Below, one piece after another: positions 1 through 32,669 of a stretch of DNA of 64,000 nt (position 1 is its first letter; each line of letters starts with the position of its first letter). The translations under genes and the position numbers were made by a program. The notes below the pieces were generated by a model that made no database searches, was not told where the DNA came from, and was given only the letters and a program-made list of their open reading frames with translations. Source of the stretch: a bacterium UBP11_UBA4055 (lineage in GTDB: Bacteria > UBA4055); contig DFZN01000071.1 in assembly GCA_002382735.1 (NCBI GenBank), positions 55,542 to 119,541 on the forward strand, in the 5' to 3' direction.

Positions 1-2
1 GT

Positions 3-10997: not shown

Positions 10998-11194
10998 TGC
11001 GGACTAAATTTACGACAAAGTAAGGAAAATCTCAAATGAAATAAAAACTGGAATGTACCCGATTTCCTGTTGAAAGTTACTTCGCGGTTTCCTTTTCTGC
11101 TCATGCTTTGCATGAACTCAAGTTCTTTTAGCCGCGCTGCGAAGTCGTTACTGCGATACTGAGAACCACGGTCAGAATGAAATTATCTGGTAAA

Positions 11195-12175: not shown

Positions 12176-12189
12176 AAGGAGGTAATCGG

Positions 12190-12692: not shown

Positions 12693-12696
12693 GGTG

Positions 12697-14632: not shown

Positions 14633-14924
14633 TTATACAAAAACCTGTAAGTAAAAGAAAAATTCAATATAATATCCTTATACCATTATTTCACAAAAAT
14701 ATACACATAAAACTTGCGTCCGGTAATAATTAATTTTAGTCACTTAAATAAAACGCAGTTTGACAGTTGCTATGTTTCTTATCTGTTTACGGTTTAAATT
14801 CCTTCGGGATCAGAAGCAGTAATGATTTTAAAGGCATTAAATATGTAAGCTGAACAGTAATGTCTTTCTAAAATGGGAATGAGGATGGTTTGAGTCTGAC
14901 ATACACATTTTAGAAGTCTTAATC

Positions 14925-15884
14925 TCATTTTATTGATAGATTATATTTTATGCCTAAACCAATAGCATCATTTTTATAATATGGAACAAATCGCACAGCT
15001 GTTTTATCATGATCTGAAACTACCCTTCTTCCGTTATCTGCTGCAATCCTTCCGAAACCGTATCCGATAGCAAGAGCTAAAGGATAATCACTTGCCCAGT
15101 GTACGCCGTTGTTCATCATCTGAAAAGATAACAGCCCCATGAGTGTCCATCCTACTGGTTTGACCCACCGGTTGTATTCCGGATAATTTTCCGTGATCAC
15201 AGTAAAAGTCATCATTGCCGTAGCCAGATGCCCGGATGGAAAAGCATCATAACTTGAAACATGCTCATGGTAATCGATCTGGTCGGGAAAGAAATCCCAT
15301 TTTCCTCCTTCTTCGGTCGATCTGTAAGGACTCTGCCTGCCTGTTATATGTTTTAGCACTTGGGTAGCGATCCCGGTAGTTATAAGTCCTTCAGCCAGCT
15401 GTGATGCGGTCTGCAGAGCCCTGTTGTCGTCTTTGATCAGACCGTAAGTTAGAAATCCTGTCATGATTGATCCGTGCAGCCACCCGTCGCCGAGGAAATA
15501 TAAAGATGATCCGAGATCGGTCGGACCTCTGAAAACAGGTATGCCTCCGATAGTAATGAACGATTGAGTCATATCTTTGCTGTTTATATTCAGATCCCGT
15601 CCCAGATCTTTAGCTTCATCGATAAGTTCCTGATCGTATATGATCAAAACAGCCGTAGAAACTGCAACAAGCGAATAGGTGATCAGACTATTCTTTTGCG
15701 TAAAAAGTCCGGCATATTCAAGATAATCGGGCACAATTCTTTTAAAAGGGTCAGGCAGACGGGGTCTTGAATATTCGTACACAGTTCCTTTATATTCGAA
15801 GATTTGCCTGTCTTCAAATCCCGCAAATAATGTGATACATATTGTCAGAATAATAAGCAGGATATTTACTTTAAAACATCTCAT
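14925..15884 (-). CDS. PAP2-family (type 2 phosphatidic acid/lipid phosphate) phosphatase, membrane
   Basis: PAP2 motifs are KxxxxxxRP-like, FPSGHLATAMM, and SDYPLA with H/D residues. It has an N-terminal TM segment. Confidence 0.7.
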   Translation of the reverse strand: MRCFKVNILLIILTICITLFAGFEDRQIFEYKGTVYEYSRPRLPDPFKRIVPDYLEYAGLFTQKNSLITYSLVAVSTAVLIIYDQELIDEAKDLGRDLNINSKDMTQSFITIGGIPVFRGPTDLGSSLYFLGDGWLHGSIMTGFLTYGLIKDDNRALQTASQLAEGLITTGIATQVLKHITGRQSPYRSTEEGGKWDFFPDQIDYHEHVSSYDAFPSGHLATAMMTFTVITENYPEYNRWVKPVGWTLMGLLSFQMMNNGVHWASDYPLALAIGYGFGRIAADNGRRVVSDHDKTAVRFVPYYKNDAIGLGIKYNLSIK

Positions 15885-15890
15885 AACCGT

Positions 15891-16430
15891 TCAGAAATTA
15901 TAAGAAAAACTAAATCCGTACATATCGCTCCCTGAAATGATACCGACAGACAGATCGTTTTTTGTATATCTGTCCGTAAAATAATAAGAGCATGATATGC
16001 CCAGAGCGGCTCCGCCGAGCACATCCCAGATGTCGTGCATGTCAGATTCGCCCTCAATGCGACTGTATCCCACGAACGAGGCGAGCAGGTATGAGGGAAT
16101 ACCCCATTTCCAACCGTATCTGCGCTGGATAAAAGAGGCTCCCTGAAACGCAGCAGAAGTGTGACCGGAAGGGAAAGCGTAATGACCGTTGCCTTCCGGC
16201 CTTGGTTTATCTATGATATATTTTAAACCGTGAGTCAGAGCAGTATTGACAATCACTGATTTTAGGAACATGTTCCTGCCGTCCTTATCACCTATAACGA
16301 GAGCGGTTAGAAATCCTGCAACAGGTATGGCGAGCTGAATTATATCACCAGCATTCGCAACATCAGGATTCTCCTCAAAGTCAACTGCGAAAAGTAAATA
16401 TCCTGATAAAAGAAAAATGATAAGCATAAG
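15891..16430 (-). CDS. PAP2-family phosphatase (second copy)
   Basis: Motifs are KYIIDKPRPEG, FPSGHTSAAF and SRIEGESDMHDIWDVLGGAALG. I chose the internal start MLIIFLL; the track N-terminal extension to 16535 is the antisense of the Lys/Ala repeat of the neighbouring gene. Confidence 0.7.
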   Translation of the reverse strand, partial: LMLIIFLLSGYLLFAVDFEENPDVANAGDIIQLAIPVAGFLTALVIGDKDGRNMFLKSVIVNTALTHGLKYIIDKPRPEGNGHYAFPSGHTSAAFQGASFIQRRYGWKWGIPSYLLASFVGYSRIEGESDMHDIWDVLGGAALGISCSYYFTDRYTKNDLSVGIISGSDMYGFSFSYNF

Positions 16431-16440
16431 TCTTTTCAAA

Positions 16441-18036
16441 TCAGAATCCCGGTATCTTGATCTTTTTCTTGGCTTCCGCCGCAGCTTTCTCAGCCTCAGC
16501 TTTTGCTTTGGCTTCCGCCGCAGCTTTCTCGGCATCGATCTTAGCCTGCGCTTTTGCCTTCTCTTCCTCCAGCTTCGCTTCGGCTTCAGCTTTTGCTTTG
16601 TCGATCTCTTCCTGAGCTTTCTGCTTTACTTCGTCTATCTTCTCGTCAACGAACGCGCCGGCTTTCTTTTTTATGAGTTCGGTGAGGCTGACGGGCATGA
16701 ACGATACTTTTACTTCGGGATCTGAGATGTCGCCTGTTGAAGTGAATTCGATAAATATTCTTCCGTCTCTGACCACGCCTGCGAGTAATTCGTTCTTGAT
16801 CTCCTGTTTGTCGATCTTGACACCTTTGATCTTGACATCCTTCATGCTGTCGTCGATGAATTTATCCGCCTGATCAAGCAGCTTTTTGGATTCCGCCTCA
16901 GATACAGTCAGATCACCTTTGAAACTGTGCTGATTGTTCATAACATTGAACCAGCTCTCTTTCTGAATTGCGACATCGTAATCGGCCGTAAGCACCTTCA
17001 GGTTTTCCTCGAAAGAAACTTTCCCTTCTTTGTATCTTATGTCAGTATCGGCATTCTTGCTTAGAACGGCTTTTTTACTCAGGATGTCGAGATTTATACC
17101 GACTTTCTCCAGAGTGGCAAGTGAAGATTTGACTTTTTCTAACGCGACAAGAGCCTGAATGAAAGAGCCTTTCCCGATAGATATCGCGTAAACAGCTTCG
17201 GGATCGACTTTACCTGTATTAGGATTGAACGGTCTGAGAACGGCACTCGACTTTATGCCGAGTCTGGCCTGTTCGGACTTCTCTTTGTTGTATATAGCCA
17301 TATTCGTATTGAAAGTGACTGTAGCTTTGTTGTGGTTAATCAGGTCCTTGGGATCAATGTCGATCTTATCTATGACCATGAAGAAGTCCGAGATCAGAAA
17401 GCGCTGCTGCGTGGTCTTAAAGAAAATGTCAACCTCGCCGTTCTCTATCCCGATCTGGTTCATCGTCGCGGCTATAGGCATGTCCTTAGCCGAAAAATCC
17501 TCCTGCGGCTCATCGGGCTGCTGTGCAGCAGGTTCCTGCGCAGCCTCAGTTTCAGCCTGCTCAGAAACTTCTGCCGGTCTTCCTTCTGCCGCTTTCCCTG
17601 AAGGCTGACCGAGCAGGGGAGTGAGATTGTCCTGCCCTTCTTCACCGAGTGTAAGTCTCGCTACCGGCCTCTGAATAATGAACTTGTTCAGCTCGAACCT
17701 TTTGTCGAATAGCGGGATCAGATTGGCCTTCAGCTCAATATTCTCAATTGAGATTATCTCACCTTCTATCTTCGGCCTTTCGTCGATGTGGACTTTGTCG
17801 TCCGCGTACTTATCTCTCTTTCCGAGCTTTATCCCGTCGATCTTCAGAGAGGGTGTGAAAGAAAAGATCCCGATGCTCACATCTGTAAGTTCGAACCTTG
17901 AATTAGTCTCAGCCTCCACAGCCTTGACGATTATGTCCTTGTCGAAATATTTCTCAAGGTAGATCTTTACCCCGAAAAGACCGACAACGACTATGAATAC
18001 TACAGCCAGAACGATCCTGAACAGCCACTTGAACAT
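16441..18036 (-). CDS. AsmA-like / DUF748-like membrane-anchored protein with a C-terminal KAEAEAK low-complexity tail
   Basis: It has a single N-terminal TM (MFKWLFRIVLAVVFIVVVGLFGV) followed by a long soluble region. The C-terminus is (KAEAE)n coiled-coil-like. Confidence 0.45.
   Translation of the reverse strand: MFKWLFRIVLAVVFIVVVGLFGVKIYLEKYFDKDIIVKAVEAETNSRFELTDVSIGIFSFTPSLKIDGIKLGKRDKYADDKVHIDERPKIEGEIISIENIELKANLIPLFDKRFELNKFIIQRPVARLTLGEEGQDNLTPLLGQPSGKAAEGRPAEVSEQAETEAAQEPAAQQPDEPQEDFSAKDMPIAATMNQIGIENGEVDIFFKTTQQRFLISDFFMVIDKIDIDPKDLINHNKATVTFNTNMAIYNKEKSEQARLGIKSSAVLRPFNPNTGKVDPEAVYAISIGKGSFIQALVALEKVKSSLATLEKVGINLDILSKKAVLSKNADTDIRYKEGKVSFEENLKVLTADYDVAIQKESWFNVMNNQHSFKGDLTVSEAESKKLLDQADKFIDDSMKDVKIKGVKIDKQEIKNELLAGVVRDGRIFIEFTSTGDISDPEVKVSFMPVSLTELIKKKAGAFVDEKIDEVKQKAQEEIDKAKAEAEAKLEEEKAKAQAKIDAEKAAAEAKAKAEAEKAAAEAKKKIKIPGF
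16471..16530. repeat. 39-bp-period tandem duplication (ggcttccgccgcagctttctc x2) inside the Lys/Ala/Glu-rich 3' end of the AsmA-like gene
   Basis: Two identical 21-mers lie at 16471-16491 and 16510-16530. Confidence 0.6.
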
Positions 18037-18047
18037 AATGCCCTCCT

Positions 18048-20570
18048 TTAATTGCCGAACGGGTCTATCAGTCCTGCCTCGGACATTTTTCCCGTCCTGA
18101 TCTTTTTTATGGGATATTTATAATAATCCATTTCTGCTATTTTAAAAACATGTTCGAATATCTCTGACATCTTCACGGAAGCCCCGTCAATGAAATTTAT
18201 GCCCGCGATAATATTATCTCCGTCGAATTGGAGCTTCTGCACGAAAGGAATTATATCGAACTCTTTTACTTTTCCCTTGTTCTCGCGGCTGATGACGAGT
18301 TTCTTTTTTGACCTGAACTTCAAGATGCATTCGGTGAAGTATTCTGCCGAGTCGTCCGGGATGATGATGAGGTATTCTGTGTAATCAATAAAATTCATAA
18401 GCGGAGTGAACTTTCCGGCCAGCTTTTTGACCTCGACGAACTCCATTATGTTCGAGAAAACTTTTCTCATGTCGGCCTCGATATCACCAATGTAATCATC
18501 CTTGAAGCCGATGTCGGCGAACTCGCAGTCGGATGTAAAACCGAAGGGCAGGGGGTGGGAGAAGCTTAAGACGGGCATCGGGTGAAAGCCTTTTGAAAAT
18601 GCGACAGGAATGTCGTGGATGAAGAATTCCCTTTCGATATATGCGCTTAAGTTCCTCTGGGAAAGAAACCTTGACTGCCTGAGCCTTCGGAACTTGACCC
18701 TGTACCTCATATCCGCCTTTGGCACTGGAGCCGCTTTGTGGCCGAGCACTTCCGAATGTTCCCTGACGATCTCCTTAATGCCCGGAGCCTTCACTTTTTC
18801 AGCAAGAAGCTCTCTGCATTTGTATTCCTTCTCAATCCCGCATTTTGCGCACTGTTTCAGGCAGTACTTCGTGAGGGACTCGTTCCGAGCTTTCTCCCAT
18901 TCAGATTCAAGGAATTTTCTGCTCACGCCTATATCGATAAAATCCCAGGGAAGCGGTTCGTTCAATCTCTTTTCCGAAAGATAATCATCCGGATTTATGC
19001 CTGTCTTTTTGAAAACTTTATTCCACAGCGAAAAGTCGAAAGTTTCCGTCCATGCATCAAAGAGAGCACCCTGTTTATATGCTTCCTCAATCGCTTTGGA
19101 GAGTTTTCTGTCTCCTCTCGAGAAAACAGCTTCGAGTATAGAGACTTCAGGATCGCGCCATGTCATGTGCACATTCGGTGTTCTTATTCGTGAGAGTAGA
19201 ATACCTATCCTGCCCTTGAAAACGCTCAGAGGAACCTGCTCAGCCCACTGGAAAGGCGTATGCGGTTTGGGGTTGAAAGGGGAGATCGAGACATTTATTT
19301 TGACCCTGCCGTAGGAGCTGCTGTACCGGCCGATCTCGTTTATCATTTCCGCCATCTCGATGATGTCCTCATCGGTCTCGAAAGGAAGTCCGATCATATA
19401 ATAAAGTTTTATGCTTTTCCATCCGAGCCTGAGCACTTTTTCCATCACATCGAGTATGGATGACAGTTCGATCGGCTTGTTGATGATCATCCTCATCCTT
19501 TCAGAGCCTGCCTCGGGCGCGAAAGTGAAGGAACTTTTCCTGCCGATCGAGGCTATTACCGCGATATTGTCGGTAAATGATTCCGCCCGCATTGATGGAA
19601 AGGACAGTTTCACCCCCTTCATCGAGCATTTTTCGTAAAGCACTTCGAGAAGAGGCTCGATGTTGGTGTAGTCCGAGGTCGAGAGGGAAAGAAGCGTCAG
19701 CTCTTTCCAGCCCGAGCGGGCGATCATCGAGGACGCCTGCCTGACAATGTCAGTGACGGGGCGCTCCCTTAAGGGGCGGTAATAATAGCCCGCCTGACAG
19801 AACCGGCATCCGCGGTCGCAGCCGCGCATGACCTCCACGGAGACCCTGTCCTGCGTGATCTCCATCAGCGGGACTACGGGCGCATCTGTGTAGTTATCAG
19901 CCTTAAGCATCGCCACGGCTTTTTTTATCCTTGTGCCGCCCGTCAGAAGAGCGGGGACATAAATGCTTTCAAGCGCGGAAAGTTCTTTCAAAAGTCCCGC
20001 TCTGTCATTTTGTCCCGCTGCTTTTTCGGCATATAGCTTCAAAAGCTCAGGCAGGCGTTCCTCTCCGTCCCCGATAAGGAACAGGTCGAAGAAGTCCGCG
20101 ACGGGCTCCGGGTTTATCGCATTGATCCCTCCGCCGAGTACAAGGGGTTTCTTTCCCTTCCTGTCTTTCGAGTAGAGCGGTATGTCCGAAAGCGAGAGTA
20201 TCTCAAGTATGTTCGTAAAACACAGCTCGTAGGGGAGAGTTATGCCCACAAGATCAAATTCCGACAGCGAAGTTCTGGTCTCCAGACTGAAAAGCGGAAT
20301 ATTCTTCTGCCTGAGAAGATCACAGGCATCCTTTTCAGGGATAAAGGCTCTCTCGCAAACAATATCGTCATAACTGTTGAGCACATGGTAGAGGATGTGG
20401 AAGCCTTTGTAGGACATTCCGATCTCGTATTTGTCCGGATAGAGAAGTACTATGCTCGTTCTTCCGGCGTGTTTTTTTACAACGGTGTTTTTTTCGGCAC
20501 CTGAATAACGCAAAGGCTTATTTACGAACGGCAGAAATTCCGTTTCTATTTTATCGAATAATGCAGTCAT
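18048..20570 (-). CDS. B12-binding-domain radical SAM protein (TIGR03960-like) fused to a DUF2344 (TIGR03936-like) C-terminal domain
   Basis: The CxxxCxxC cluster is MRGCDRGCRFCQAGYYY. The N-terminus (FLPFVNKPLRYSG) is typical of the family. Total length is 840 aa. Confidence 0.8.
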   Translation of the reverse strand: MTALFDKIETEFLPFVNKPLRYSGAEKNTVVKKHAGRTSIVLLYPDKYEIGMSYKGFHILYHVLNSYDDIVCERAFIPEKDACDLLRQKNIPLFSLETRTSLSEFDLVGITLPYELCFTNILEILSLSDIPLYSKDRKGKKPLVLGGGINAINPEPVADFFDLFLIGDGEERLPELLKLYAEKAAGQNDRAGLLKELSALESIYVPALLTGGTRIKKAVAMLKADNYTDAPVVPLMEITQDRVSVEVMRGCDRGCRFCQAGYYYRPLRERPVTDIVRQASSMIARSGWKELTLLSLSTSDYTNIEPLLEVLYEKCSMKGVKLSFPSMRAESFTDNIAVIASIGRKSSFTFAPEAGSERMRMIINKPIELSSILDVMEKVLRLGWKSIKLYYMIGLPFETDEDIIEMAEMINEIGRYSSSYGRVKINVSISPFNPKPHTPFQWAEQVPLSVFKGRIGILLSRIRTPNVHMTWRDPEVSILEAVFSRGDRKLSKAIEEAYKQGALFDAWTETFDFSLWNKVFKKTGINPDDYLSEKRLNEPLPWDFIDIGVSRKFLESEWEKARNESLTKYCLKQCAKCGIEKEYKCRELLAEKVKAPGIKEIVREHSEVLGHKAAPVPKADMRYRVKFRRLRQSRFLSQRNLSAYIEREFFIHDIPVAFSKGFHPMPVLSFSHPLPFGFTSDCEFADIGFKDDYIGDIEADMRKVFSNIMEFVEVKKLAGKFTPLMNFIDYTEYLIIIPDDSAEYFTECILKFRSKKKLVISRENKGKVKEFDIIPFVQKLQFDGDNIIAGINFIDGASVKMSEIFEHVFKIAEMDYYKYPIKKIRTGKMSEAGLIDPFGN

Positions 20571-20578
20571 AGTATTAT

Positions 20579-21232
20579 CTAAATTTCGCCCCTGAGAATT
20601 TTTACAGCCTTTTCTCTGTCGGGATGTTTGAAGAAATAATTACCCGAAACAAGGCAGTTCACGCCTCTTTTTGTCAGCATTCCGCAGGTTTCGGCATTAA
20701 CGCCCCCGTCCACCTGTATAATAAAATCATCTTTCAGTCGGTCTTTGTATCTCTGATTGAAAAGATCAATTTTCTTAAGTACCGAAGGAATGAACTTCTG
20801 GCCTGAAAAGCCGGGATTTACCGTCATGAACAGGATCATATCCAATTCATCGATCACATAATCAATAAAATCAATTTCGGTCGCGGGATTAACGGCAACC
20901 GCGGATTTTGCTCCGAGAGACCTTATAAGCTGAAGCTGCCTGTGGAGGTGTGGACAGGTCTCGGCATGGACAGAAATTATATCGGCGCCGGCATTAATGA
21001 AGTTCTCAATATATCTTTCGGGGTTCTCTATCATAAGATGCACATCGAGTACGAGGTCAGACGCTTTTCTGCAGAATTCCACAACGAACGGGCCGAAAGT
21101 GATGTTGGGAACGAAATGACCGTCCATTATATCGAGATGAAGCCAGTCGGCACCGGAATCTTTCACGCTCTTAATTTCGGTTTTAAGTTCCAGAAAATCC
21201 GCTGAGAGAAGTGACGGCGCTATGTGTATCAT
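20579..21232 (-). CDS. rpe: ribulose-phosphate 3-epimerase
   Basis: MIHIAPSLLSADF…LHLDIMDGHFVPNITFGP…DVHLM…GADIISVH…VNPGFSGQKF…QVDGG are all conserved RPE blocks. Confidence 0.92.
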   Translation of the reverse strand: MIHIAPSLLSADFLELKTEIKSVKDSGADWLHLDIMDGHFVPNITFGPFVVEFCRKASDLVLDVHLMIENPERYIENFINAGADIISVHAETCPHLHRQLQLIRSLGAKSAVAVNPATEIDFIDYVIDELDMILFMTVNPGFSGQKFIPSVLKKIDLFNQRYKDRLKDDFIIQVDGGVNAETCGMLTKRGVNCLVSGNYFFKHPDREKAVKILRGEI

Positions 21233-21252
21233 CTGAATTCTCCTTAAATTTG

Positions 21253-24200
21253 TTAAAAATTCGTTCCGAGGCTGAAAATATGTATAGGTGACGAAGTTGC
21301 GGAATTAAAGTCCCATGTCCATGAAACATCGTACCTTAATATGAAATAGCCGGCGTTCATTCTTGTACCGATCCCGGAAGAGAAAAGAATGTCTTTCAGT
21401 CTTCTGTCGCCGTCTTCAGTCTTGACCGTACCTCTGAAGTCAGAATTGTTCCATGCGCTCCCTGCGTCGGTAAACAGGACGCCGTCGATCTTTCCCAGAA
21501 CCATCGGGAACGGAAAACCGAGAACCATGTATTTCACGAAAGGATACCTGAATTCGGCGTTGACCAGAGCATACCTGTTGCCCGATCTCTCCAGAAGCCT
21601 GTAACCCCTCAAGGGATAAACTCTTGAAGAGTAATACTTGTCAATAAAAGTATCATAGTTGTAATCGTCATTATATTTGTAGTTCAGCCAGTTCGAAAAG
21701 CCCCCGAGATAAAAATTCTGCGGAGTGCTGCCTTCGCTGACTGCTCCTGACAGTCTCAGCGCGATCTGATATTCTCCTTTAAGCCTGAAATATTTCCTGT
21801 AGTCCAGAGCGAAAGTGGAAAAATAACCCGTGCTCTCTTCTTTTAGCGTCAGATCGTCCGTTTCCGAACCGTAAACAGCGTCAACCCTCATCCTCGTTCC
21901 GTTCTCAGGCCCGTAATATCCCCAGATAACATTATCGTACGAAAAACCTCCGCCTGCAGTCATGAAGGTATTGGTGTGATCATGCTGATAATCTTCAGCC
22001 GAATCCAGCCACTTTTCATTTATTATACTTGTAATATCAACAGATGAGTCCACTCTTGAAAATCTGCTGAATGGGTATTGCGCGGATAAATGCATACATA
22101 GAAGCCTGTCCCTGTACCAGTCATCAACCTCTGTCTCACTTTCGTCCCAGATGTAATAATAGACGACTTCGTGACTGATGCCCATGCCTATGTTCATTCT
22201 TTTCTTCAGGTAGTAGTAATATAAACCGAGATTAGAGTTCAGAATGTCCTGATTGAGATCGGTGGCCAGAATAAAACGGTGATCGGAAAGATAATCGGAG
22301 AATTGAAGATAAGTCGAACCCACGACTCCGTAACCGGTAGCATACCCGGCATTGACCGTTATAATATCAGGGGTAAAGTGGATCGCATAGGATTTAGGCT
22401 TTCTCAGCTCTATCCTCTGTTCCTCGGTGATGACTTCTTCCGGCTTCTCTTCCAAAAGGTCTTTTCTGAACTTGAATTTCCTCAGATCGGTCTTTGAGAA
22501 TTCGAAAGTGGAGTCTTTTTCCACAGAGACTTTTGAGAAATCGGTCTCTTCATACCATCTGACCTCAAGAGGGTCTTTTTTATTTTCGATCAGCTTTTCC
22601 GCATCATTTATCATGAATATATCATATCCGGCTTTAAATACAGCCGTAAAAGCAATTTTGTTGTCGCTGTATGAAGCCTGTGAACAGCCTGTCATCAGAT
22701 TGGTGAGACCGGATGATCGTCCTGATGAGAGGTCTTTATAGTATATATTCGAAATTCCTGACTCGTCTGAAATATATCCTAATCTGCTGTCATCTATCCA
22801 GAACGGAGAGAATTCCCTGAAACCTCCCGGATCTGTGACCGGAGTGATCGTGTCTGAAGCTATATCAAGTACGAAAATATCTTTGACATTCAAATTCCTG
22901 TCCATGATGCCTGAGAGCAATTTCTTGTCGATCGTGAGGTCATCAAGCCTGTCAGATGAAAAGGCTATTTTTGTACCGTCGGGCGAGAACCTGGGTTCGT
23001 TGTCTGAATAGATGTCGTCGGTGAGCTTCTTAAGTTCTCCTGTTTCTATCGTATAAAGGTAAATGTCAGAGAACCCGTCTTTCAGACCGGTAAAACAAAT
23101 ATGCTCGCCGTCCTTAGACCATTCGGGATAATACAGTCCGTCCAGCCCGAATTTCACTCTCTTCAGCCTTTTACCTGTTTCAGCTTCATAGATGAAAAGG
23201 GCGTCCTCGTCAGTGCTTTTTGTGAAAAACGCTATGTTCCTGCTGTCCGGCGACCATGCAAAACCGGGTCTGAGCCAGTGAAATTCCTCAAAATCTCCCG
23301 AGGACTGGCCTGAGATAATCTTCTTTATTATCTTGCCGTCGAATGTTCTCATCAGATAAATGTCAAAGTAATCAGACTTATTGCTCAGGAACACGATCTT
23401 TTTTCCGTCGGGGCTTATGACCGGTGAATTATTTATCGAATTCCCGTATTCTTCATGATCTGTCAGTATCACCGCTGCTGATTTAGGTTCATCTGTTGCT
23501 ATCAGCGTGTCCCAGAATTTTGTCTTGAGCCATTTATCCCAGTTCTGTGAAAGGTCCTTGAAGTTCGTGCCCAGCGCATCGAGAAAGGCATCTTCGGTAG
23601 ATCTGATTATGTTTATCGACCTCAGGATCTCTCCGATCTTCTTGCTTCCGTAAGTGTCCGCTATGTATTTAAAAAGGGACTGCCCGCCTTTATAGGCCAT
23701 ATAATTATTGAGATAGTATAAATTCCCGATATAATTATGGTAAACTGCGTCCCTTACTGTCTGATCGGATTCGCTGTCCCACCCGCCCCGGCTTTCATAC
23801 TCTGCGATCCCCTCTATGAACCAGAGCGGCATGTTCATATTAGCGAGACCCGAAACTATCGACTGGTAATTACCCTGAAAAAGCATCTGGTTCATTATCG
23901 CATGAGTGAGCTCATGGTGGATCACATGCCTGAAATCCTCCCAGTTACCCTCGTAAGGCACAACGACCCTGTTCTTGAAGAATTCGGTAAAGCCGCCGAC
24001 CGATTCTTCCGGAATCCCTCCCATTATATTTGTTTCCTCGAAATGGTTGTGGGAGTTGTAAACTATTACATGGATCTTGGATCTGGGAATATACATCATA
24101 TCTTTTCTCAGCCGTTCCAGTGACCTTTCAGCCATTTCGGCAGTGAAATCGGCAAGATGATCGCCACCCTGATAATAATAGATCCTGAAGTGGTCCGTCT

Positions 24201-24303
24201 CAATAAATTTCCAGTCAAAATCATGATGCTGAACTTTATTCTTTCCGAAAGGGAATAGTGCCGAAGCGATCAAGAGTATGTAAAATATGCGGAAAAATCT
24301 CAT
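21253..24303 (-). CDS. multidomain outer-membrane protein with an N-terminal peptidase-MA-like zinc-metallopeptidase domain (HEXXH), a central TolB/PD40-type beta-propeller and a C-terminal Omp85/BamA-like (bacterial surface antigen) beta-barrel
   Basis: It has a signal peptide and a VIHHELTHAIM zincin motif. PD40 repeats include SPDGKKIVFLS…DIYLM, SPDSRNIAFF…FIYEAETG, SKDGEHICFTG…DIYLYTIETGE and SPDGTKIAFSSDR. The C-terminus has a RGY…NAEFRYP…GVLFTDAGSAW…RYDVSW pattern and a terminal …SLGTNF (aromatic C-terminus). Confidence 0.7.
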   Translation of the reverse strand: MRFFRIFYILLIASALFPFGKNKVQHHDFDWKFIETDHFRIYYYQGGDHLADFTAEMAERSLERLRKDMMYIPRSKIHVIVYNSHNHFEETNIMGGIPEESVGGFTEFFKNRVVVPYEGNWEDFRHVIHHELTHAIMNQMLFQGNYQSIVSGLANMNMPLWFIEGIAEYESRGGWDSESDQTVRDAVYHNYIGNLYYLNNYMAYKGGQSLFKYIADTYGSKKIGEILRSINIIRSTEDAFLDALGTNFKDLSQNWDKWLKTKFWDTLIATDEPKSAAVILTDHEEYGNSINNSPVISPDGKKIVFLSNKSDYFDIYLMRTFDGKIIKKIISGQSSGDFEEFHWLRPGFAWSPDSRNIAFFTKSTDEDALFIYEAETGKRLKRVKFGLDGLYYPEWSKDGEHICFTGLKDGFSDIYLYTIETGELKKLTDDIYSDNEPRFSPDGTKIAFSSDRLDDLTIDKKLLSGIMDRNLNVKDIFVLDIASDTITPVTDPGGFREFSPFWIDDSRLGYISDESGISNIYYKDLSSGRSSGLTNLMTGCSQASYSDNKIAFTAVFKAGYDIFMINDAEKLIENKKDPLEVRWYEETDFSKVSVEKDSTFEFSKTDLRKFKFRKDLLEEKPEEVITEEQRIELRKPKSYAIHFTPDIITVNAGYATGYGVVGSTYLQFSDYLSDHRFILATDLNQDILNSNLGLYYYYLKKRMNIGMGISHEVVYYYIWDESETEVDDWYRDRLLCMHLSAQYPFSRFSRVDSSVDITSIINEKWLDSAEDYQHDHTNTFMTAGGGFSYDNVIWGYYGPENGTRMRVDAVYGSETDDLTLKEESTGYFSTFALDYRKYFRLKGEYQIALRLSGAVSEGSTPQNFYLGGFSNWLNYKYNDDYNYDTFIDKYYSSRVYPLRGYRLLERSGNRYALVNAEFRYPFVKYMVLGFPFPMVLGKIDGVLFTDAGSAWNNSDFRGTVKTEDGDRRLKDILFSSGIGTRMNAGYFILRYDVSWTWDFNSATSSPIHIFSLGTNF

Positions 24304-24443
24304 TTTAGGTTCCGTAATTTACTCAAGTGTGTAATATATGTAATCAAAACACTTTTTGCGACGATAAAAAAGATTAATTATTTTTCTTGAATTTACAGAT
24401 ACATGAGTTATATTAACCTTATAAAATCTGGTACGGAGACATT

Positions 24444-26243
24444 ATGGGAATATATTTTGTCAAAGCCTTTCTGCTACTGTCTGTTATGTTACATTCAATT
24501 CCCGCATTCGGTCTCAAAATTGGAGTTTATGATAATCCGCCCAAGATATTTTTGAACGAGAAAGGCGATGTTGACGGTTTCTGGCATGCAGTTACTGTTG
24601 AAATAGCCAAAAAAGAGAACTGGAAGATCGAATGGGTATGCGGTTCATGGGACGAATGTCTGCACAGACTTGAAACAGGCGAGATTGATATAATGCCGGA
24701 TACGGGAGTGACCCCCGACCGGAAATTGAAATATGTTTTCAATGAAGAAACAGTTTACCTGAGCTGGAACAGGGTTTATTCAAGAATTGATGCCGGCATA
24801 ATTACGGTACTGGATCTTGAGGGTAAAAAAGTTGCCGGTCTCAGGAACAGTTTTGATCTGGAAGGACCCGAAGGTTTGAAAAAACTTTTAACAGATTTTT
24901 CCGTGAATGCGCAGATAATAGAAATGGACAGTTATGAAGATATATTCACGGCACTTGGAAAAAACGAGATATCAGCCGGCCTAGTGGATAAAGATTTCGG
25001 TCTATTTAATGAGCAGAAGCACCCGGTCTTTAAGACCCCGATCATTCTACAGCCCGCAAAGATGCAGTTCGCTATGGAAAAAAATTCGCCATTCTCGAAA
25101 GATATCATCCGGATCATTGATATGAGAATGGCTGAGATGAAAGCAGACAAAAATTCTGTTTACTATAAAGCTTTTGATCACTTTTTCGGAGAAGAGGGCA
25201 GGCGTTTTAGAATACCCGGCTGGCTTTGGATAATTCTGATCGGACTTTGCTCACTGATCGCGGTCGTAGTGCTTTTGAACCGATATTTGAGAAACGAGGT
25301 AAAGAAAAAAACGCTGAGCCTGAAAGAGAGTGAGGAAAGTCTGAGGATCACTCTGGAGTCTATCGGTGACGGAGTTATAGCTGCCGACATGAACGGTCTG
25401 ACCACGATAATGAACAAGACTGCCGAAAGTCTTACCGGATGGAAGTTCTCTGAAGCCATCGGGAAGCCGATAAAAGAAATATTCAGAATAGTTAATTCTG
25501 AAACAAGACAGGAAGTAATAAATCCCGTCGAATTGGTGATAAAGAACGGTGTTATCGTGGGACTGGCTAATCATACTGTACTGATCTCAAGGAACGGTAA
25601 AGAATATCAGATATCCGACTCGGCTGCGCCGATAAAAGATGATAAAGGAGATATACACGGCATGATCCTCGTATTCTCCGATGTTACAGAAAAATATTCA
25701 ATCAGATACAGGGTAGAAGAAAATGAGAGATTTCTTGACTCTCTCATTTCCAATCTGAACGGAATGGTGTACCGTTGCGTCAATGACAAGAAATGGTCGC
25801 TGATATATTCAACTGTCGGATCAAAGGAAATAACAGGTTATATGCCTGAAGAGCTTATCAGGGGAACCTTAAGATACGCTGATATGGTATTTCCGGAGGA
25901 TGTGCCTGTTCTCAAGAACGCAATAGACAGAGCGATCGCATCCAGACAGCATTTTAATGTTGAATACAGGCTCACTGACCGTAACGGTAAGCTGAAATGG
26001 GTGCTGGAAAAGGGCAAAGGCATATATGATGAGAACGGTAATGTCAAATTCATTGAGGGTTTCGTTACTGATATTACTCCGAGTAAGACCTCAGAAATGG
26101 AAATAAGGGAAAAATCAGAAGAACTTGAAAGGACAAACCGGCTTATGGTGGACAGGGAATTAAAGATGATAGAGCTCAAAAAAGAGATCAATGCTCTGTT
26201 AAAAGCCTCAGGAAAAGAACCCAGATATATAACAAACGAATAG
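24444..26243 (+). CDS. membrane sensor made of a periplasmic family-3 solute-binding-protein domain, one TM, two PAS domains and a coiled coil, with no kinase or other output domain
   Basis: It has a signal peptide, an SBP_bac_3-like region to about aa 250, a TM (WLWIILIGLCSLIAVVVLL) and PAS boxes (…ITLESIGDGVIAAD…), and ends in a heptad coiled coil. Confidence 0.7.
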   Translation: MGIYFVKAFLLLSVMLHSIPAFGLKIGVYDNPPKIFLNEKGDVDGFWHAVTVEIAKKENWKIEWVCGSWDECLHRLETGEIDIMPDTGVTPDRKLKYVFNEETVYLSWNRVYSRIDAGIITVLDLEGKKVAGLRNSFDLEGPEGLKKLLTDFSVNAQIIEMDSYEDIFTALGKNEISAGLVDKDFGLFNEQKHPVFKTPIILQPAKMQFAMEKNSPFSKDIIRIIDMRMAEMKADKNSVYYKAFDHFFGEEGRRFRIPGWLWIILIGLCSLIAVVVLLNRYLRNEVKKKTLSLKESEESLRITLESIGDGVIAADMNGLTTIMNKTAESLTGWKFSEAIGKPIKEIFRIVNSETRQEVINPVELVIKNGVIVGLANHTVLISRNGKEYQISDSAAPIKDDKGDIHGMILVFSDVTEKYSIRYRVEENERFLDSLISNLNGMVYRCVNDKKWSLIYSTVGSKEITGYMPEELIRGTLRYADMVFPEDVPVLKNAIDRAIASRQHFNVEYRLTDRNGKLKWVLEKGKGIYDENGNVKFIEGFVTDITPSKTSEMEIREKSEELERTNRLMVDRELKMIELKKEINALLKASGKEPRYITNE

Positions 26244-26251
26244 GATGAAAA

Positions 26252-26527
26252 TTGGTACAGGAAAATGAAATAATAACTTTTTTACTTTTTGCGCTCGTAG
26301 TGATCTTTTATTTTATCAACAGGCAGAAGCTTTCGGGATTCCCTGGAATAAAGTATTTTCTGATCTCGATAGTTTTCCTGTTGATAAGCAGTATTCTGAC
26401 GATAATAGAAGGCTTTTTCTTTGAAGAGATCATCAACACAGCAGAACATATAACACGACTCGTCTCCACAGTAATGCTTTTTGTTTGGGCTTATTCTTTA
26501 AGAGCAAAAAAAGGAAGTGCGAAATGA
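26252..26527 (+). CDS. small 3-TM membrane ORF (TTG start) overlapping the next kinase gene by 4 nt; possibly a detached N-terminal membrane module
   Basis: Hydrophobic helices are FLLFALVVIFYF, YFLISIVFLLISSILTII and LVSTVMLFVWAY. There is no in-frame ATG. It ends ATGA, overlapping the kinase start. Confidence 0.35.
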   Translation: MVQENEIITFLLFALVVIFYFINRQKLSGFPGIKYFLISIVFLLISSILTIIEGFFFEEIINTAEHITRLVSTVMLFVWAYSLRAKKGSAK

Positions 26528-28383
26528 TAGGTTATATAGATTTTTTGTGCCTGATTTTTACAGTAATGTCCGGAATTTTTATGGTCAGAATAAAAAAAGT
26601 CAAACTCCCGTTATTTCTAAATGTCACTAAAATATTATTTCTTCTCCTTTTTTTCCATTACCTGAGTAATTCGCTCGAATGGCTCGGGATTTCGGATATA
26701 CTCGATCCTTACGAAGATTTTATTGAGCTTTTTGAACCGTATTTTTTGTTTATGATTGTGTACTTGTTTATAGCTGAAAAATCCGGTGAAAGTTTAAAAG
26801 CGTCAGAAGAAAAATACAGACTTCTTATTGAAAACCAGGATACTCTTGTTGTAAAGATCGATCCTGAAGGGCGCTTTATCTATGTGAGCCCGAGTTATTG
26901 TAAAGCCTTCGGAAAGAAAGAGGAAGAACTTCTGGGACAGAAATTCCTTCCCCTTGTGCATGAAGAAGATATCGGACCTACTTTAATGGAGATGGAGAAG
27001 CTTTATAGTCCTCCATATAGCTGTTATATTGAACAGAGGGCGATGACCGTTAAAGGGTCGAGATGGTTGGGCTGGGCTGACAAGGCTGTTTTTGATAAAG
27101 ACGGTAAAATGATCGAGATAATCGGAGTGGCCCACGATGTTACCGAAAGAAAGAACAATGATAACGAAATAAAGAATCTTAAAACCCAGTTCGAATATGT
27201 TCTCGGTGCTACAAATACGGGTTTCGATCTGATCGATGAGGATTATAATGTGCTCTATATTGATCCGATGTGGGCAAAAGTTCTCGGGGATTATTCAGGA
27301 AAGAAATGTTATGAATACTTTATGGACAGAGAGGAACCATGTTTAACATGCGGCATTCCGTCAGTACTTAAAACCGGCAACACTGAAGTTACTGAAGAAT
27401 ATCTTGTTAAGGAAGACAGGCACATCGTGGTACATACGATACTGCTCAAAGAAAAAGTGAACGGAAAGCGTGTAGTAGCCGAATTCAATATTGATATCAC
27501 TGAAAGAAAGAAAAAGGTGCACGACCTCAGACAGGCACTTGATGATCTGAAAAAGAGCAGGCTGGCCGAATTGAATCTTATTGAAGATCTTAAATTCGAG
27601 ATAAATGAAAAAGAAGAAGCAAGGCTCGAGATCAAGAAGCTTAACGACACGCTTGAAAAGAGAGTAGAGGAAAGAACAAGAGAGCTTGAACTCTCGAACA
27701 GAGAGCTGGAGGCTTTCAGCTATTCGGTTTCTCATGATCTCAGGGCTCCGTTAAGACATATTCTGGGATTTACTGTACTTCTAAACGACGCAGTTCAAAA
27801 TGGTACTATTCAGGATGCTGTTCATGATATTGAAAAGATCAGAGAAAGCGCCGAAAGCATGGGTGGGCTGATCGACGACCTTCTCAATTATTCCAGAACG
27901 GGAAGAACTGAGATCAATGTGGGAACAGTTAAAATGAAAGAAATCGTACTTGAGATAAAAGAAAGGATGATGAACGAGAATCAGTCCAGAGATATCGAAT
28001 GGATCGTCCGTAATATGCCTGACGCTGAATGTGACGAAAATCTAATAAGAACTGTCTGGCTCAATATTATTGATAACGCCGTCAAATATACTTCGAAAAA
28101 AGACAAAGCTGTGATTGAGATAGGTTTTGAAGAAACTGACCGGACATACGGCTATTTTGTAAAGGACAACGGCGCGGGATTCGACATGAAGTATTCCGAT
28201 AAGCTGTTCGGCGTATTCCAAAGGCTACACTCAAAGAATGAATTTCCGGGTACAGGTATAGGACTTGCGAATGTAAGGCGCATAATATCCCGGCACAGAG
28301 GTACCGTAAATGCGGTCTCTGAAGGTGAGGGAAAAGGCGCATGTTTTTATTTCATTCTGCCTGTTAAGGAGAATATCAAATGA
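26524..28383 (+). CDS. membrane PAS/PAS sensor histidine kinase
   Basis: It has 3 N-terminal TM helices and PAS domains. HisKA is FSYSVSHDLRAPLRHI and the HATPase_c N/G boxes are IIDNAVKYT and GTGIGLANVRRI. I chose the start at MIGYIDF; the track starts at 26485. Confidence 0.8.
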   Translation: MIGYIDFLCLIFTVMSGIFMVRIKKVKLPLFLNVTKILFLLLFFHYLSNSLEWLGISDILDPYEDFIELFEPYFLFMIVYLFIAEKSGESLKASEEKYRLLIENQDTLVVKIDPEGRFIYVSPSYCKAFGKKEEELLGQKFLPLVHEEDIGPTLMEMEKLYSPPYSCYIEQRAMTVKGSRWLGWADKAVFDKDGKMIEIIGVAHDVTERKNNDNEIKNLKTQFEYVLGATNTGFDLIDEDYNVLYIDPMWAKVLGDYSGKKCYEYFMDREEPCLTCGIPSVLKTGNTEVTEEYLVKEDRHIVVHTILLKEKVNGKRVVAEFNIDITERKKKVHDLRQALDDLKKSRLAELNLIEDLKFEINEKEEARLEIKKLNDTLEKRVEERTRELELSNRELEAFSYSVSHDLRAPLRHILGFTVLLNDAVQNGTIQDAVHDIEKIRESAESMGGLIDDLLNYSRTGRTEINVGTVKMKEIVLEIKERMMNENQSRDIEWIVRNMPDAECDENLIRTVWLNIIDNAVKYTSKKDKAVIEIGFEETDRTYGYFVKDNGAGFDMKYSDKLFGVFQRLHSKNEFPGTGIGLANVRRIISRHRGTVNAVSEGEGKGACFYFILPVKENIK

Positions 28384-30239
28384 TCAGGGTGTATAAAGAG
28401 ATACTTGACGAATTACCTTCGGGTGTGTGGGTCACCGACAGAGAGGATAAGGTAGTTTACATAAATAAAGCCATGACGGCTATAGCCGGAGCTTCGATAG
28501 AAGAGTTTACAGGATTGAATGTTTTTAAAGATATGGATAATCCGGGGAATAAAGAATTCCTTGAATCCTACAGAAAAGTAAAACGGAATCTCTTTCCCGG
28601 AGAATACGAGGTCAGGCTGAAAGATTCCAAAGGGCAAGGTTTCGTTCACAGGGGATGGCTCACTCCGCTGATCAAGAACTGTTTTTATGGCGGAATGATC
28701 GTTACGGCTGAAGATATCACAGAGAAAGATATCTATCTGAAAGCTGTGAAAGAATCAGAGGATAAGTTCAGAAGAACGATCGAATTTGCGGCCGACGGAA
28801 TACTTCTCGGCTCACCTGAAGGCTATATTACTGAAGCCAATCAAGCTGTCTGCGAACTGTTCGGTATGGATAAAAAGAATATGATGCAGCTTCATAAAAT
28901 GCCGTTCACAAAAGAGAGCCTTGAAAGATACCCTATGAGATTCGACCTTTTAAAACAGGGAAAGACCGTGATCAGCGAGAGAGTAATAAAAAGGAAGGAC
29001 GGTTCGGAGATCATGATCGAAATGAAAACTAAGATGATGGATGACGGTAGCTATCAGTCCATATACAGGGATATTACCGAGAGGAAACAGAATGAGAATG
29101 CCCTGAAAGAAAACGAGGAGAAATTCAGGACGATTTTTGAAGAGTCCAATGATGCGATATATCTAATGGACGGCGACACTTTTATTGACTGTAACGAACA
29201 GGCCGTTAAAATGTTCGAATGCGCCGACAGAAATGAAATGATCAATCACAAACCGATGGAATTCTCACCGTCCGTTCAACCCGACGGGTCAGAAAGTGTT
29301 CCATCGGCACTTGAGCATATAAATGAGGCACTGGCCGGAAGACAGCAGAGGTTCTACTGGAAACACAGGAAGAAGAACGGACAGGATTTTGACGCCGAAG
29401 TTTCCCTCAACGCAGTTTTTCTAAAAGGCAAAAAGTTCCTTCAGGCGATCGTTAAAGATATAACATTCAGAATGGAGGCTGAAAAAGAGATTAAACAGAT
29501 AAACGAATCTCTTGAGCAGAAGATCAAGGAACGGACAGCTGAGCTTGAAGAAGCCTACAAAGAACTTGAATCGTTCAGTTATTCGGTGTCGCACGATCTG
29601 AGGGCACCTTTGAGGCATATTTCCGGTTTCTCGGATATAACAAGGAAAAACCTTTCTTCAGGCAATATTGAGAAAGCCTCAAATTCTCTAAAGAAAGTCG
29701 AGGAAGCTACAGAAAAAATGGAAAAACTGATCGATGGCCTTCTCAAATTGTCAAGGACAGGAAGAGTAGAGCTCAATATGACTGAACTGAACATGAACGG
29801 TATTATTGCGGATGTGATAGATGAGTATAAAGACTGCCCTGAGTATAATGCGGCAGAGTGGCACATAAGAGAGCTGCCTTCCGTCTATGCTGACAGGACA
29901 CTTATGACTTCAGTTTGGGAAAATCTTATAGATAATGCACTTAAATACACTGGTAAGAACGATGATCCCAAGATCGAGATCGGATGTAATAACTCAGCCG
30001 ACCGCTGCGAATTTTATATAAAGGATAACGGCGTAGGATTCGATCCTGAGTTCACAAATAAGTTATTCGGGGTTTTTCAGAGGCTGCATCTTGATAAAGA
30101 ATTCCGCGGTACAGGCATAGGTCTTGCCACAGTGAAAAGAATAATCGACCGTCACGGGGGAACTGTGCGGGCGGAAGGAGAGACAAATAAAGGCGCAACA
30201 TTTTATTTTACACTACCAAAAGTACAGGGGGAAAAATGA
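28380..30239 (+). CDS. cytoplasmic multi-PAS sensor histidine kinase
   Basis: It has three PAS-like segments. HisKA is FSYSVSHDLRAPLRHI. HATPase_c motifs are LIDNALKYT, DNGVGFD and GTGIGLATVKRI. Confidence 0.85.
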   Translation: MIRVYKEILDELPSGVWVTDREDKVVYINKAMTAIAGASIEEFTGLNVFKDMDNPGNKEFLESYRKVKRNLFPGEYEVRLKDSKGQGFVHRGWLTPLIKNCFYGGMIVTAEDITEKDIYLKAVKESEDKFRRTIEFAADGILLGSPEGYITEANQAVCELFGMDKKNMMQLHKMPFTKESLERYPMRFDLLKQGKTVISERVIKRKDGSEIMIEMKTKMMDDGSYQSIYRDITERKQNENALKENEEKFRTIFEESNDAIYLMDGDTFIDCNEQAVKMFECADRNEMINHKPMEFSPSVQPDGSESVPSALEHINEALAGRQQRFYWKHRKKNGQDFDAEVSLNAVFLKGKKFLQAIVKDITFRMEAEKEIKQINESLEQKIKERTAELEEAYKELESFSYSVSHDLRAPLRHISGFSDITRKNLSSGNIEKASNSLKKVEEATEKMEKLIDGLLKLSRTGRVELNMTELNMNGIIADVIDEYKDCPEYNAAEWHIRELPSVYADRTLMTSVWENLIDNALKYTGKNDDPKIEIGCNNSADRCEFYIKDNGVGFDPEFTNKLFGVFQRLHLDKEFRGTGIGLATVKRIIDRHGGTVRAEGETNKGATFYFTLPKVQGEK

Positions 30240-30679
30240 GATCAAAATTCATTCTGCTGGTAGAGGATGACCAGAACGATGTAGAGCTTACTTTAAGAGC
30301 TCTCAAGCACGGGTACGACGGGAATATCACAGTAGTAAATGACGGAGCCGAGGGACTTGATTTTCTTTTCCGAAAAGGAAAATACGCAGACAGGGGGACT
30401 GAAGATCCGGGTTTTATTATTCTGGACAAGAAGATGCCCAAAATGGACGGTATTGAATTACTCATTGCCGTAAAAAAAGACGAAGTGTTAAAGAATATTC
30501 CCGTAATAATGTTCAGCTCGTCTAATTACGAAAAGGACATTTCGGACTCCTACAAAGCCGGCGTGAACGCTTACATTGTAAAACCTATAAATATTGATGA
30601 ATATTATAAAGCAGTCAGAGAGATCGGGCACTTTTGGGGTGAGTTGAACGAAGCACCTTCAATGCAAAACCGTCCTTGA
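30236..30679 (+). CDS. single-domain response regulator (CheY-like receiver only)
   Basis: ILLVEDDQND…FIILDKKMPKMDG…PVIMFSSS…K carries the receiver DD / D / T-S / K positions. Confidence 0.85.
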   Translation: MRSKFILLVEDDQNDVELTLRALKHGYDGNITVVNDGAEGLDFLFRKGKYADRGTEDPGFIILDKKMPKMDGIELLIAVKKDEVLKNIPVIMFSSSNYEKDISDSYKAGVNAYIVKPINIDEYYKAVREIGHFWGELNEAPSMQNRP

Positions 30680-30755
30680 GATAAACGGTTAGACAAAAAA
30701 ATGGTAATTGCCGGTTGGCATTGAACAAGACAGTCCAAATATAACAGGCTTAATA

Positions 30756-32644: not shown

Positions 32645-32669
32645 ATTGCTGATAAATTAAGGATAAATA

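Follow-up and report, generated by a model that had tools for sequence, protein, structure and literature searches.

What kind of protein joins a zinc peptidase, a β-propeller and an outer-membrane barrel in one chain, and does it represent a new kind of system? The question is raised by a gene in a 64,000-nucleotide (nt) stretch of contig DFZN01000071.1 (assembly GCA_002382735.1, bacterium UBP11_UBA4055), hereafter the window. An original prediction, made from the sequence alone, had described its product as a single 1016-amino-acid (aa) polypeptide combining a HEXXH (zincin) peptidase, a TolB/PD40 propeller and an Omp85/BamA-type barrel lacking the customary POTRA domains, and had proposed either an outer-membrane-anchored protease or chaperone, exposed to the surface or the periplasm, or a two-partner-secretion-like module of a new type. 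According to the list of open reading frames (ORFs) and the translation, the target gene is indeed one unbroken ORF that starts with ATG and runs through 1016 codons to a stop. The coding strand, left unstated at the outset, is the minus strand, and the plus-strand reading of the same interval contains many stops. All the motifs named at the outset were found in the translation at the expected relative positions, namely VIHHELTHAIM (aa 127-137), SPDGKKIVF...DIYLM (aa 297-318), RGY (aa 899-901), NAEFRYP (aa 915-921), GVLFTDAGSAW (aa 941-951) and the terminal Phe (aa 1016).

The domain architecture is that of a zincin peptidase followed by a TolB/PD40 propeller and an Omp85 barrel, and sequence profiles, a structural model and Foldseek searches all place the three in the one polypeptide, as had been proposed, at scores well above the chance level. 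The full-length AlphaFold2 model, built on 56 homologues, reached a mean predicted local distance difference test (pLDDT) score of 82.3 and a predicted template modelling (pTM) score of 0.81. With strands assigned by DSSP, it resolves into a mainly helical zincin domain with a small sheet (aa 31-270), a propeller (aa 288-566), a linker (aa 567-642) and a barrel (aa 643-1014). The Pfam scan matched Peptidase_MA_2 and PD40 in the target itself, and the structural model has the 16 barrel strands that the original prediction expected, together with six propeller blades. The coordinates of all features are collected in Table 1.

The amino-terminal domain belongs to the gluzincin type. Pfam Peptidase_MA_2 (PF13485) matched aa 58-260 (E = 2.4e-12; 47.5 bits versus a cutoff of 32.4), and when aa 1-285 were modelled separately (pLDDT 83.6), all fold matches were zinc peptidases, with aminopeptidase N and collagenase T as the best Foldseek results, so that the HEXXH segment does sit in a zincin fold. 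The nearest folds at low root-mean-square deviation are M9 and M30 endopeptidases, and the matches are protein or peptide endo- or aminopeptidases, with no known muropeptidases among them. In the full-length model, HEXXH lies within a helix spanning aa 121-142 and E164 within a second helix at aa 160-171. Residue conservation was counted over 78 sequences from the best 80 of at least 585 genome relatives: H130, E131, H134, W161, E164, G165, E168 and Y204 are present in every one, down to 35% identity. E164 is the presumed third zinc ligand, following the gluzincin pattern in which HEXXH is succeeded by a Glu on a downstream helix, and Y204 is a candidate transition-state stabiliser, as in M1 and thermolysin-type enzymes. 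Because H130, E131, H134, E164 and Y204 are kept throughout, the target is likely to be an active zinc metalloprotease; given the invariant catalytic residues and the M9/M30 endopeptidases as nearest low-deviation folds, we infer that it acts as an endopeptidase. The strict conservation of this site further indicates that proteolysis is probably central to the function of the family.

A loop at aa 94-112 of the same domain carries seven invariant residues (E100, G103, G104, T106, E107, K110 and R112) and falls below a pLDDT of 50 at aa 94-109 in the full-length model and at aa 93-96 and 100-106 in the aa 1-285 model; it is a candidate mobile flap. The tetrad G104-F-T-E107 was considered as a counterpart of the GXMEN exopeptidase motif of M1-type aminopeptidases and dropped, since the loop is unmodelled and the PDB profile search gave no M1 sequence match.

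The central part of the protein is a PD40 propeller, recognized by the Pfam PD40 repeats (E = 3.7e-17) and by the NCBIfam TolB propeller model TIGR02800 (E = 7e-36; 124 bits versus an equivalog cutoff of 343). TolB structures head both the Foldseek PDB list (5e-11) and the PDB profile search (1.5e-19), with weaker matches to Pfam DPPIV_N and to S9 and tricorn entries in PDB. The earlier count of 'four or more' PD40 repeats was right as to the propeller; the number of blades is six in the AlphaFold2 model, where 23 DSSP strands form six four-stranded blades. The propeller is followed by a linker with 14 Glu and 12 Lys among its 76 residues, which is poorly conserved in the homologue alignment, has a pLDDT below 50 at aa 594-621, and contains no β-strand, its sole secondary structure being short helices at aa 568-573 and 627-633. 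Neither PF07244 nor PF08479 was matched in the Pfam scan and no POTRA fold appears in the modelled linker, in agreement with the description of a POTRA-less Omp85 protein.

The carboxy-terminal domain comprises 16 long strands between aa 643 and 1014. Their odd-numbered connections measure 3, 7, 9, 4, 12, 52, 21 and 9 residues, and the even-numbered ones 4, 5, 4, 11, 2, 5 and 2 residues. In the model this pattern of loops and turns is Omp85-like with β1 beginning in the periplasm, the start of β1 being placed there because of the loop and turn lengths. Foldseek searches of PDB returned the barrels of BamA, TamA and Fusobacterium nucleatum BamA at about 1e-9 to 1e-8 over roughly 400-430 aligned columns. 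A profile of the orthologous C-terminal domains found F. nucleatum BamA (9ccg) at 1.6e-6, aligning the region from FxDxG to the terminal Phe with FaDaG opposite FTDAG, and NCBIfam gave short partial TamL and BamA matches near the C-terminus of the target. The target's own barrel yields no match to Pfam PF01103 at E ≤ 0.1, but in an alignment of 24 orthologous C-terminal sequences, 33-72% identical to the target, PF01103 was matched by 13 of the barrels (best E = 3.2e-16), and five of nine more distant relatives exceeded its 24-bit gathering cutoff. Membership of the target in the Omp85 superfamily thus rests on transitive homology combined with the modelled structure.

The hallmarks singled out by the original prediction (RGY, NAEFRYP, GVLFTDAGSAW and the terminal Phe) are borne out by the strands on which they fall and by their conservation. 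The 52-residue connection L6, between β11 and β12, carries R899-G900-Y901, with P897 and G900 found in all 78 family members and R899 in 77. On β12, the residues of NxExRxP (N915, E917, R919 and P921) are each conserved in 75-78 of the 78, and on β13, F944, D946 and G948 occur in 75, 78 and 76 members, respectively. The last residue is aromatic in 76/78 sequences, the target ending in …FSLGTNF. As modelled, RGY between strands 11 and 12 together with FTDAG on strand 13 is exactly the L6/β13 arrangement of Omp85 proteins, and the barrel, judged by its retained functional motifs, resembles a working Omp85 barrel. BamA, TamA and TamL share with the target the 16-strand barrel, the L6 RG(F/Y), the FxDxG of β13 and the C-terminal aromatic residue; unlike BamA and TamL, the target has no POTRA, and it scores only 30 bits against a cutoff of 400 and 12 bits against a cutoff of 1050, respectively. 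One periplasmic turn, T4, stands out in the model with 11 connecting residues versus 2-5 in the other turns, and is well conserved (D790 and P799 in 78/78, G802 in 75 and W794 in 74).

Table 1. Features of the target gene and its product (positions in the window; residue numbers refer to the translation)
Feature	Position	Strand	Basis or remark
WD40-like Omp85 family gene (peptidase + propeller + barrel)	21253..24303	minus	complete ORF; full-length homologues 36-92% identical
Putative Sec-type signal peptide, aa 1-18, MRFFRIFYILLIASALFP	24250..24303	minus	basic n-region, hydrophobic core, ASA motif
Mature N-terminal motif FGKNKVQ(H/Y), aa 19-26	24226..24249	minus	conserved in homologue alignment
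Gluzincin metallopeptidase domain (Peptidase_MA_2), aa 31-270	23494..24213	minus	profile, fold
Conserved loop, aa 94-112, MGGIPEESVGGFTEFFKNR	23968..24024	minus	before edge strand beside active-site helix
HEXXH zinc-binding/catalytic motif, H130-E-L-T-H134	23902..23916	minus	translation, conservation
E164 in WFIEG, presumed third zinc ligand (gluzincin Glu)	23812..23814	minus	78/78 conserved
Y204, invariant Tyr	23692..23694	minus	78/78 conserved
Six-bladed TolB-like PD40 β-propeller, aa 288-566	22606..23442	minus	Pfam, NCBIfam, model, Foldseek
Flexible K/E-rich linker, aa 567-642, without POTRA	22378..22605	minus	model, composition
16-stranded Omp85-type outer-membrane β-barrel, aa 643-1016, aromatic β-signal (…FSLGTNF)	21256..22377	minus	DSSP, Foldseek, profile
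Long periplasmic turn T4, aa 790-802, DNVIWGYYGPENG, between β8 and β9	21898..21936	minus	model, conservation
Loop L6, aa 858-909, between β11 and β12; RG(Y/F) at aa 899-901 (21601-21609)	21577..21732	minus	model, conservation
β13 F-T-D-A-G, aa 944-948, Omp85 (F/G)xDxG motif pairing with L6	21460..21474	minus	conservation, 9ccg alignment

At its N-terminus the protein begins with a putative Sec-type signal peptide, predicted to be cleaved after aa 18. Direct reading of the signal peptide found no Cys and no lipobox, and the target is therefore not a lipoprotein. The mature protein would start with FGKNKVQ, in which all 56 aligned homologues share F19, G20, N22, V24 and Q25; this segment is of low confidence in the AlphaFold2 model. 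Three parts of the target, namely this segment, the loop formed by aa 94-112 and barrel turn T4 (aa 790-802), are invariant or nearly so.

To what extent is this architecture shared? A protein-database search gave more than 3,000 matches; nearly all of the best 120 span the full length (about 1010-1095 aa) and show the same set of domains. The nearest relatives, 89-92% identical, come from Candidatus Delongbacteria, followed at 39-50% identity by proteins from Cloacimonadota, KSB1, Zixibacteria, LCP-89 and Zhuqueibacterota. When GTDB species were scanned, each represented by a single genome and with an FGKNKVQ-type motif as one of the two patterns retrieving the loci, full-length relatives were recovered from at least 585 species genomes; the best 80 of these relatives are full-length and belong to Delongbacteria, KSB1, Calditrichota, Ignavibacteria, Bacteroidota, Zixibacteria and Marinimicrobia. 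Searching 1.84 billion cluster representatives with the barrel only (aa 601-1016) returned 1390 relatives, 584 of them at E ≤ 1e-10, and nearly all the full-length ones measure 950-1170 aa and carry the barrel at the C-terminus. Among nine distant barrel relatives that were scanned, PD40 was found in all nine, Peptidase_MA_2 in seven of the eight that are full-length and PF01103 in five of nine. The same three-domain order, which the original prediction had suggested seeking in other genomes, is thus a fixed trait of the family, and purifying selection acts on the protease site as well as on the Omp85 motifs. One database entry, P0010 (JGI, 722 aa), is 100% identical to the target across 70% of the target's length and probably stems from the same organism, its gene having been called shorter or its contig truncated.

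An architecture of this kind had been catalogued before. In their survey of the Omp85/TpsB superfamily, Heinz and Lithgow (2014, Front Microbiol 5:370, PMC4104836) distinguished ten subfamilies, one of them 'WD40-like', with a Pfam profile (Table S2) of PF07676 repeats plus PF01103. For approximately 95 of its members, Table S3 of that study reports Phyre2 matches to BamA/TamA barrels (4k3b, 4c00) and TolB (2w8b, 2ivz) and, in a column entitled 'best aminopeptidase hit', to tricorn factor F3 (1z5h), aminopeptidase A (4kxd), collagenases (4ar1, 4ar9), ERAP1 (3qnf) and 4fgm. The main text of PMC4104836 covers the propeller only (as a 'BamA-BamB fusion'), and the peptidase domain appears only in this supplementary table. 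The organisms include Caldithrix, Ignavibacterium, Melioribacter, Cloacimonas, Rhodothermus, Salinibacter and many Bacteroidota, with 3-4 WD40-like paralogues per genome in Caldithrix, Rhodothermus and Ignavibacterium (Table S3, PMC4104836). Our own fold searches returned 2w8b, 2ivz, 4ar9, 3qnf and 4fgm; factor F3 and aminopeptidase A came up as well, under other entries. Like the target, the WD40-like proteins have PD40 repeats N-terminal to an Omp85 barrel, a zincin region and no POTRA; their taxa overlap those of the target's relatives (Bacteroidota, Ignavibacteria, Caldithrix, Cloacimonas and others), and full-length relatives 36-50% identical to the target occur in taxa of the listed members, which include H1XQ58, B0VIY2 and I0AKC8 (Cloacimonadota, P0020; Ignavibacterium album, L027; Caldithrix, L050). 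The target is a new, Delongbacteria-like member of the known WD40-like Omp85 subfamily, an assignment made by domain layout, fold matches and taxa. The present copy, from an uncultured Delongbacteria-like genome, shows no difference in kind, and the proposal of a module of a 'new type' is therefore not supported, its layout having been catalogued in 2014. The two-partner-secretion-like reading had no support and was rejected: there is no TpsB/ShlB-type Pfam match, no POTRA and no TpsA-like neighbour.

What, then, might the family do? We lean towards an outer-membrane-tethered, periplasm-facing, active zinc metalloprotease, and infer its location, activity and substrates from the anatomy of the target, from the periplasmic location of the enzyme domain of PlpD and from an analogy with the pairing of BepA and the β-barrel assembly machinery (BAM). 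After Sec export, the 16-stranded Omp85 barrel would insert into the outer membrane with β1 starting on the periplasmic side, and the linker of about 76 K/E-rich residues would tether the peptidase-propeller module beneath the membrane. There, a gluzincin (HEXXH plus Glu, of M9/M30/M1-like fold) would be packed beside the six-bladed TolB-like propeller, which would bind partners or admit only unfolded polypeptides and peptides, as in DPP-IV, prolyl oligopeptidase and tricorn protease. In these enzymes, as in acylaminoacyl peptidase, a β-propeller likewise adjoins a peptidase domain, but the S9 and tricorn enzymes are soluble serine peptidases, whereas the target is a zincin with a predicted outer-membrane anchor. 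The barrel would provide the anchor and might, in the manner of BamA, double as a gate engaging β-barrel clients. The outer-membrane-anchored protease of the original prediction accordingly survives as a plausible reading with regard to architecture, Omp85 barrel and intact catalytic set, with protease activity as its predicted part.

The N-terminal module is placed in the periplasm because β1 starts there, because all the Omp85 N-terminal domains tested so far are periplasmic (Hanson et al. 2024, PMC11116518) and because of PlpD. In this patatin-like Omp85 protein, formerly assigned to 'type Vd secretion', the patatin domain was once thought to be secreted and was then shown to stay periplasmic (PMC11116518). 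PlpD and the target have in common an enzyme domain N-terminal to an Omp85 barrel; they differ in that PlpD has a patatin lipase and one POTRA, and the target a zincin plus propeller, a disordered linker and no POTRA. In the Pfam scan neither patatin (PF01734) nor POTRA was detected in the target, which is thus not of the PlpD type. By the same precedent, surface exposure of the protease module is disfavoured.

Several observations nevertheless weigh against a periplasmic protease. In addition to the missing PF01103 match, the 76-residue linker is long enough to thread the barrel lumen and is compatible with surface exposure, and the peptidase domain is closest in structure to endopeptidases that are secreted (collagenase and lugdulysin), a resemblance that would also fit an extracellular role. 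There is no family-wide neighbour either, the most widespread of the gene groups obtained by de novo clustering of 835 flanking ORFs occurring in no more than 17 of 80 loci. Our literature searches found no functional study of, or experiment on, any family member, and Hanson et al. (PMC11116518) list the WD40-like proteins among the Omp85 groups that 'have not been well characterized'. The linker, in particular, bears on an alternative resembling type V secretion, in which the barrel, or BAM during assembly, would move the module to the surface, with the linker spanning the lumen, and the protein would act as an extracellular foraging protease. The autotransporter-like layout (enzyme N-terminal to the barrel, a long disordered linker and no POTRA) is what such self-export would call for, and Heinz and Lithgow raised PlpD-like export for a related 'Metallo' group of Omp85 proteins (PMC4104836). 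We nonetheless regard it as clearly improbable: the passenger of PlpD, the precedent, was shown to be periplasmic (PMC11116518), the conserved RG of L6 and FxDxG of β13 suggest that L6 fills the lumen as in BamA, and a folded propeller of 280 aa and a zincin of 240 aa would have to cross unfolded with no energy source. Propellers of the PD40/TolB type are, moreover, typically periplasmic.

Within the periplasmic protease reading, the whole protein could be viewed as a covalent counterpart of the quality-control pairing of BepA with BAM. Two reports (PMC8423444, PMC13478230) describe BepA as a periplasmic HEXXH protease that helps LptD to mature and breaks down LptD intermediates that have stalled at BAM. 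In both the Escherichia coli pair and the target, a HEXXH zinc protease with a protein-interaction scaffold is located at an Omp85 barrel, the analogy being a functional one. BepA consists of an M48 peptidase and TPR and is a separate soluble protein docking on BamA, whereas the target has a Peptidase_MA_2 (M9/M30/M1-like) fold and a PD40 propeller scaffold, both covalently fused to its own barrel. A bolder version, which we consider rather unlikely, envisages a self-contained outer-membrane quality-control machine, the lateral gate of which would capture stalled or misfolded β-barrel or secreted clients and pass them to the tethered, propeller-gated protease. Such a protein would unite BAM-like recognition and BepA-like degradation in a single polypeptide and would be widespread in the FCB group and related phyla; in it, the FGKNKVQ N-terminus, the loop at aa 94-112 and turn T4 might be regulatory or docking elements.

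The retention of all the Omp85 functional motifs in the barrel would suit an outer-membrane protein assembly factor, the 'BamA-BamB fusion' proposed by Heinz and Lithgow (PMC4104836). The barrel would then insert or fold clients, with proteolysis secondary or absent, and the propeller, which sits where POTRA- or BamB-like scaffolds do, would replace them for docking. This appears quite unlikely to us, given that all 78 members retain the catalytic HEXXH, Glu and Tyr, arguing that proteolysis is central, and that several paralogues per genome are more typical of substrate-diversified enzymes than of a core insertase. BamB, furthermore, is an eight-bladed lipoprotein of the WD40 type, and the target's propeller is six-bladed, TolB-like and of the PD40 type.

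Gene context was assessed in the window and in 80 related loci. Downstream (3') of the target, on the same strand and separated by a 20-nt gap, is rpe (ribulose-phosphate 3-epimerase), followed by an 840-aa fusion of radical SAM (Radical_SAM_N2 + Radical_SAM) and DUF2344, a 531-aa AsmA-family protein and two PAP2 phosphatases (14925-21232, minus strand); the AsmA ORF and the next PAP2 ORF overlap by about 95 nt, and one of the start codons is probably mis-set. Upstream, divergent from the target on the opposite strand, runs a series of PAS sensor histidine kinases and response regulators (24444-34955, plus strand), which includes an SBP_bac_3-PAS protein, several PAS-HisKA-HATPase proteins, a stand-alone receiver and hybrid kinases. 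When ten of the window's neighbours were compared by tblastn with the 80 loci, synteny was detected only in the Delongbacteria-like loci L001 and L002, where the order rpe, radical-SAM, AsmA-family downstream of the family gene recurs, as it does nowhere else among the 80; the PAP2 genes of the window were found in none of them. A scan of 14500-24600 for promoters and terminators gave terminator-like sites at chance level, and the sigma-70 consensus used may not be that of the host.

Other lineages have neighbours of their own. A conserved string precedes the family gene in Ignavibacteria and some Bacteroidota, made up of a PfkB-type kinase, an RfaE-like cytidylyltransferase, an approximately 1500-aa DUF748/AsmA-like protein and RNase R (L027, L040, L041, L043, L045-L048, L055, L061, L065, L068, L069, L071 and L072; about 1-8000). 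In Calditrichota it is directly followed by MlaE (L008, L019, L024, L025, L029, L037, L057 and L067; about 11000-12700) and, in most such loci, then by an MlaF-like ABC ATPase, and elsewhere the lineage-specific neighbour is MurA or a GWxTD protein. Many of the recurrent neighbours are envelope genes (AsmA-like/DUF748, MlaEF, MurA), which is mildly suggestive, and the link between the family gene and AsmA-like envelope proteins is weak and lineage-specific. Operon partners in the form of a TpsA-like cargo, TamB or Pal were rejected, as no neighbour is conserved across the 80 loci; gene context therefore gives no clue to the substrate.

MurA, MlaEF and AsmA-like proteins among these neighbours would be in keeping with an enzyme for envelope tethering or remodelling, the propeller of which binds a Pal- or OmpA-like protein while the zincin cuts cell-wall peptides or lipoprotein tethers and the barrel only anchors, a role for which PlpD offers a precedent of an Omp85 scaffold anchoring a periplasmic enzyme. 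The propeller's nearest relatives are indeed TolB proteins, which bind Pal through the same domain (PDB titles of 2w8b, 2hqs and 4r40), and TolB, with its six-bladed PD40 propeller, is the best sequence and structure match for aa 288-566. Yet the target falls well below the TolB equivalog cutoff, as noted above, and carries the peptidase instead of the N-terminal TolA-binding α/β domain of TolB. Moreover, no pal, tolA, tolQ or tolR, and thus no tol-pal cluster, was identified among the genes scanned beside the target; no neighbour is conserved across the family; and the fold matches are protein or peptide endo- and aminopeptidases as opposed to known muropeptidases. We consider an envelope tether of this kind very unlikely. 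Membership in TolB itself was rejected on the sub-cutoff score, the peptidase N-terminus and the neighbours (rpe, radical SAM, AsmA-family, PAP2 and PAS kinases).

Elsewhere in the window, three large ORFs have no Pfam match at E ≤ 1e-5 (156-2447, plus strand, 763 aa; 2480-3646, plus strand, 388 aa; 34952-36847, minus strand, 631 aa). The window further encodes an 889-aa protein with a C-terminal GT4 glycosyltransferase domain (56102-58771, plus strand) and a 668-aa PKD-domain protein (61370-63376, minus strand).

The original prediction thus made a correct domain call in a known family, as opposed to discovering a new kind of system, and the result will not surprise specialists acquainted with the 2014 survey. 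What is added here is that the barrel motifs are kept and that at least 585 species share one fixed architecture. Whereas the WD40-like proteins figure as a BamA-BamB-like scaffold in the main text of the 2014 survey, the strict conservation of the zincin site points to proteolysis, and its conservation across hundreds of species makes the family a reasonable experimental target. If these proteins are outer-membrane-tethered periplasmic proteases, they would extend the view, based on PlpD, that the Omp85 scaffold has been reused to anchor periplasmic enzymes, and they could stand for a route of envelope quality control in phyla in which no such route has yet been studied.

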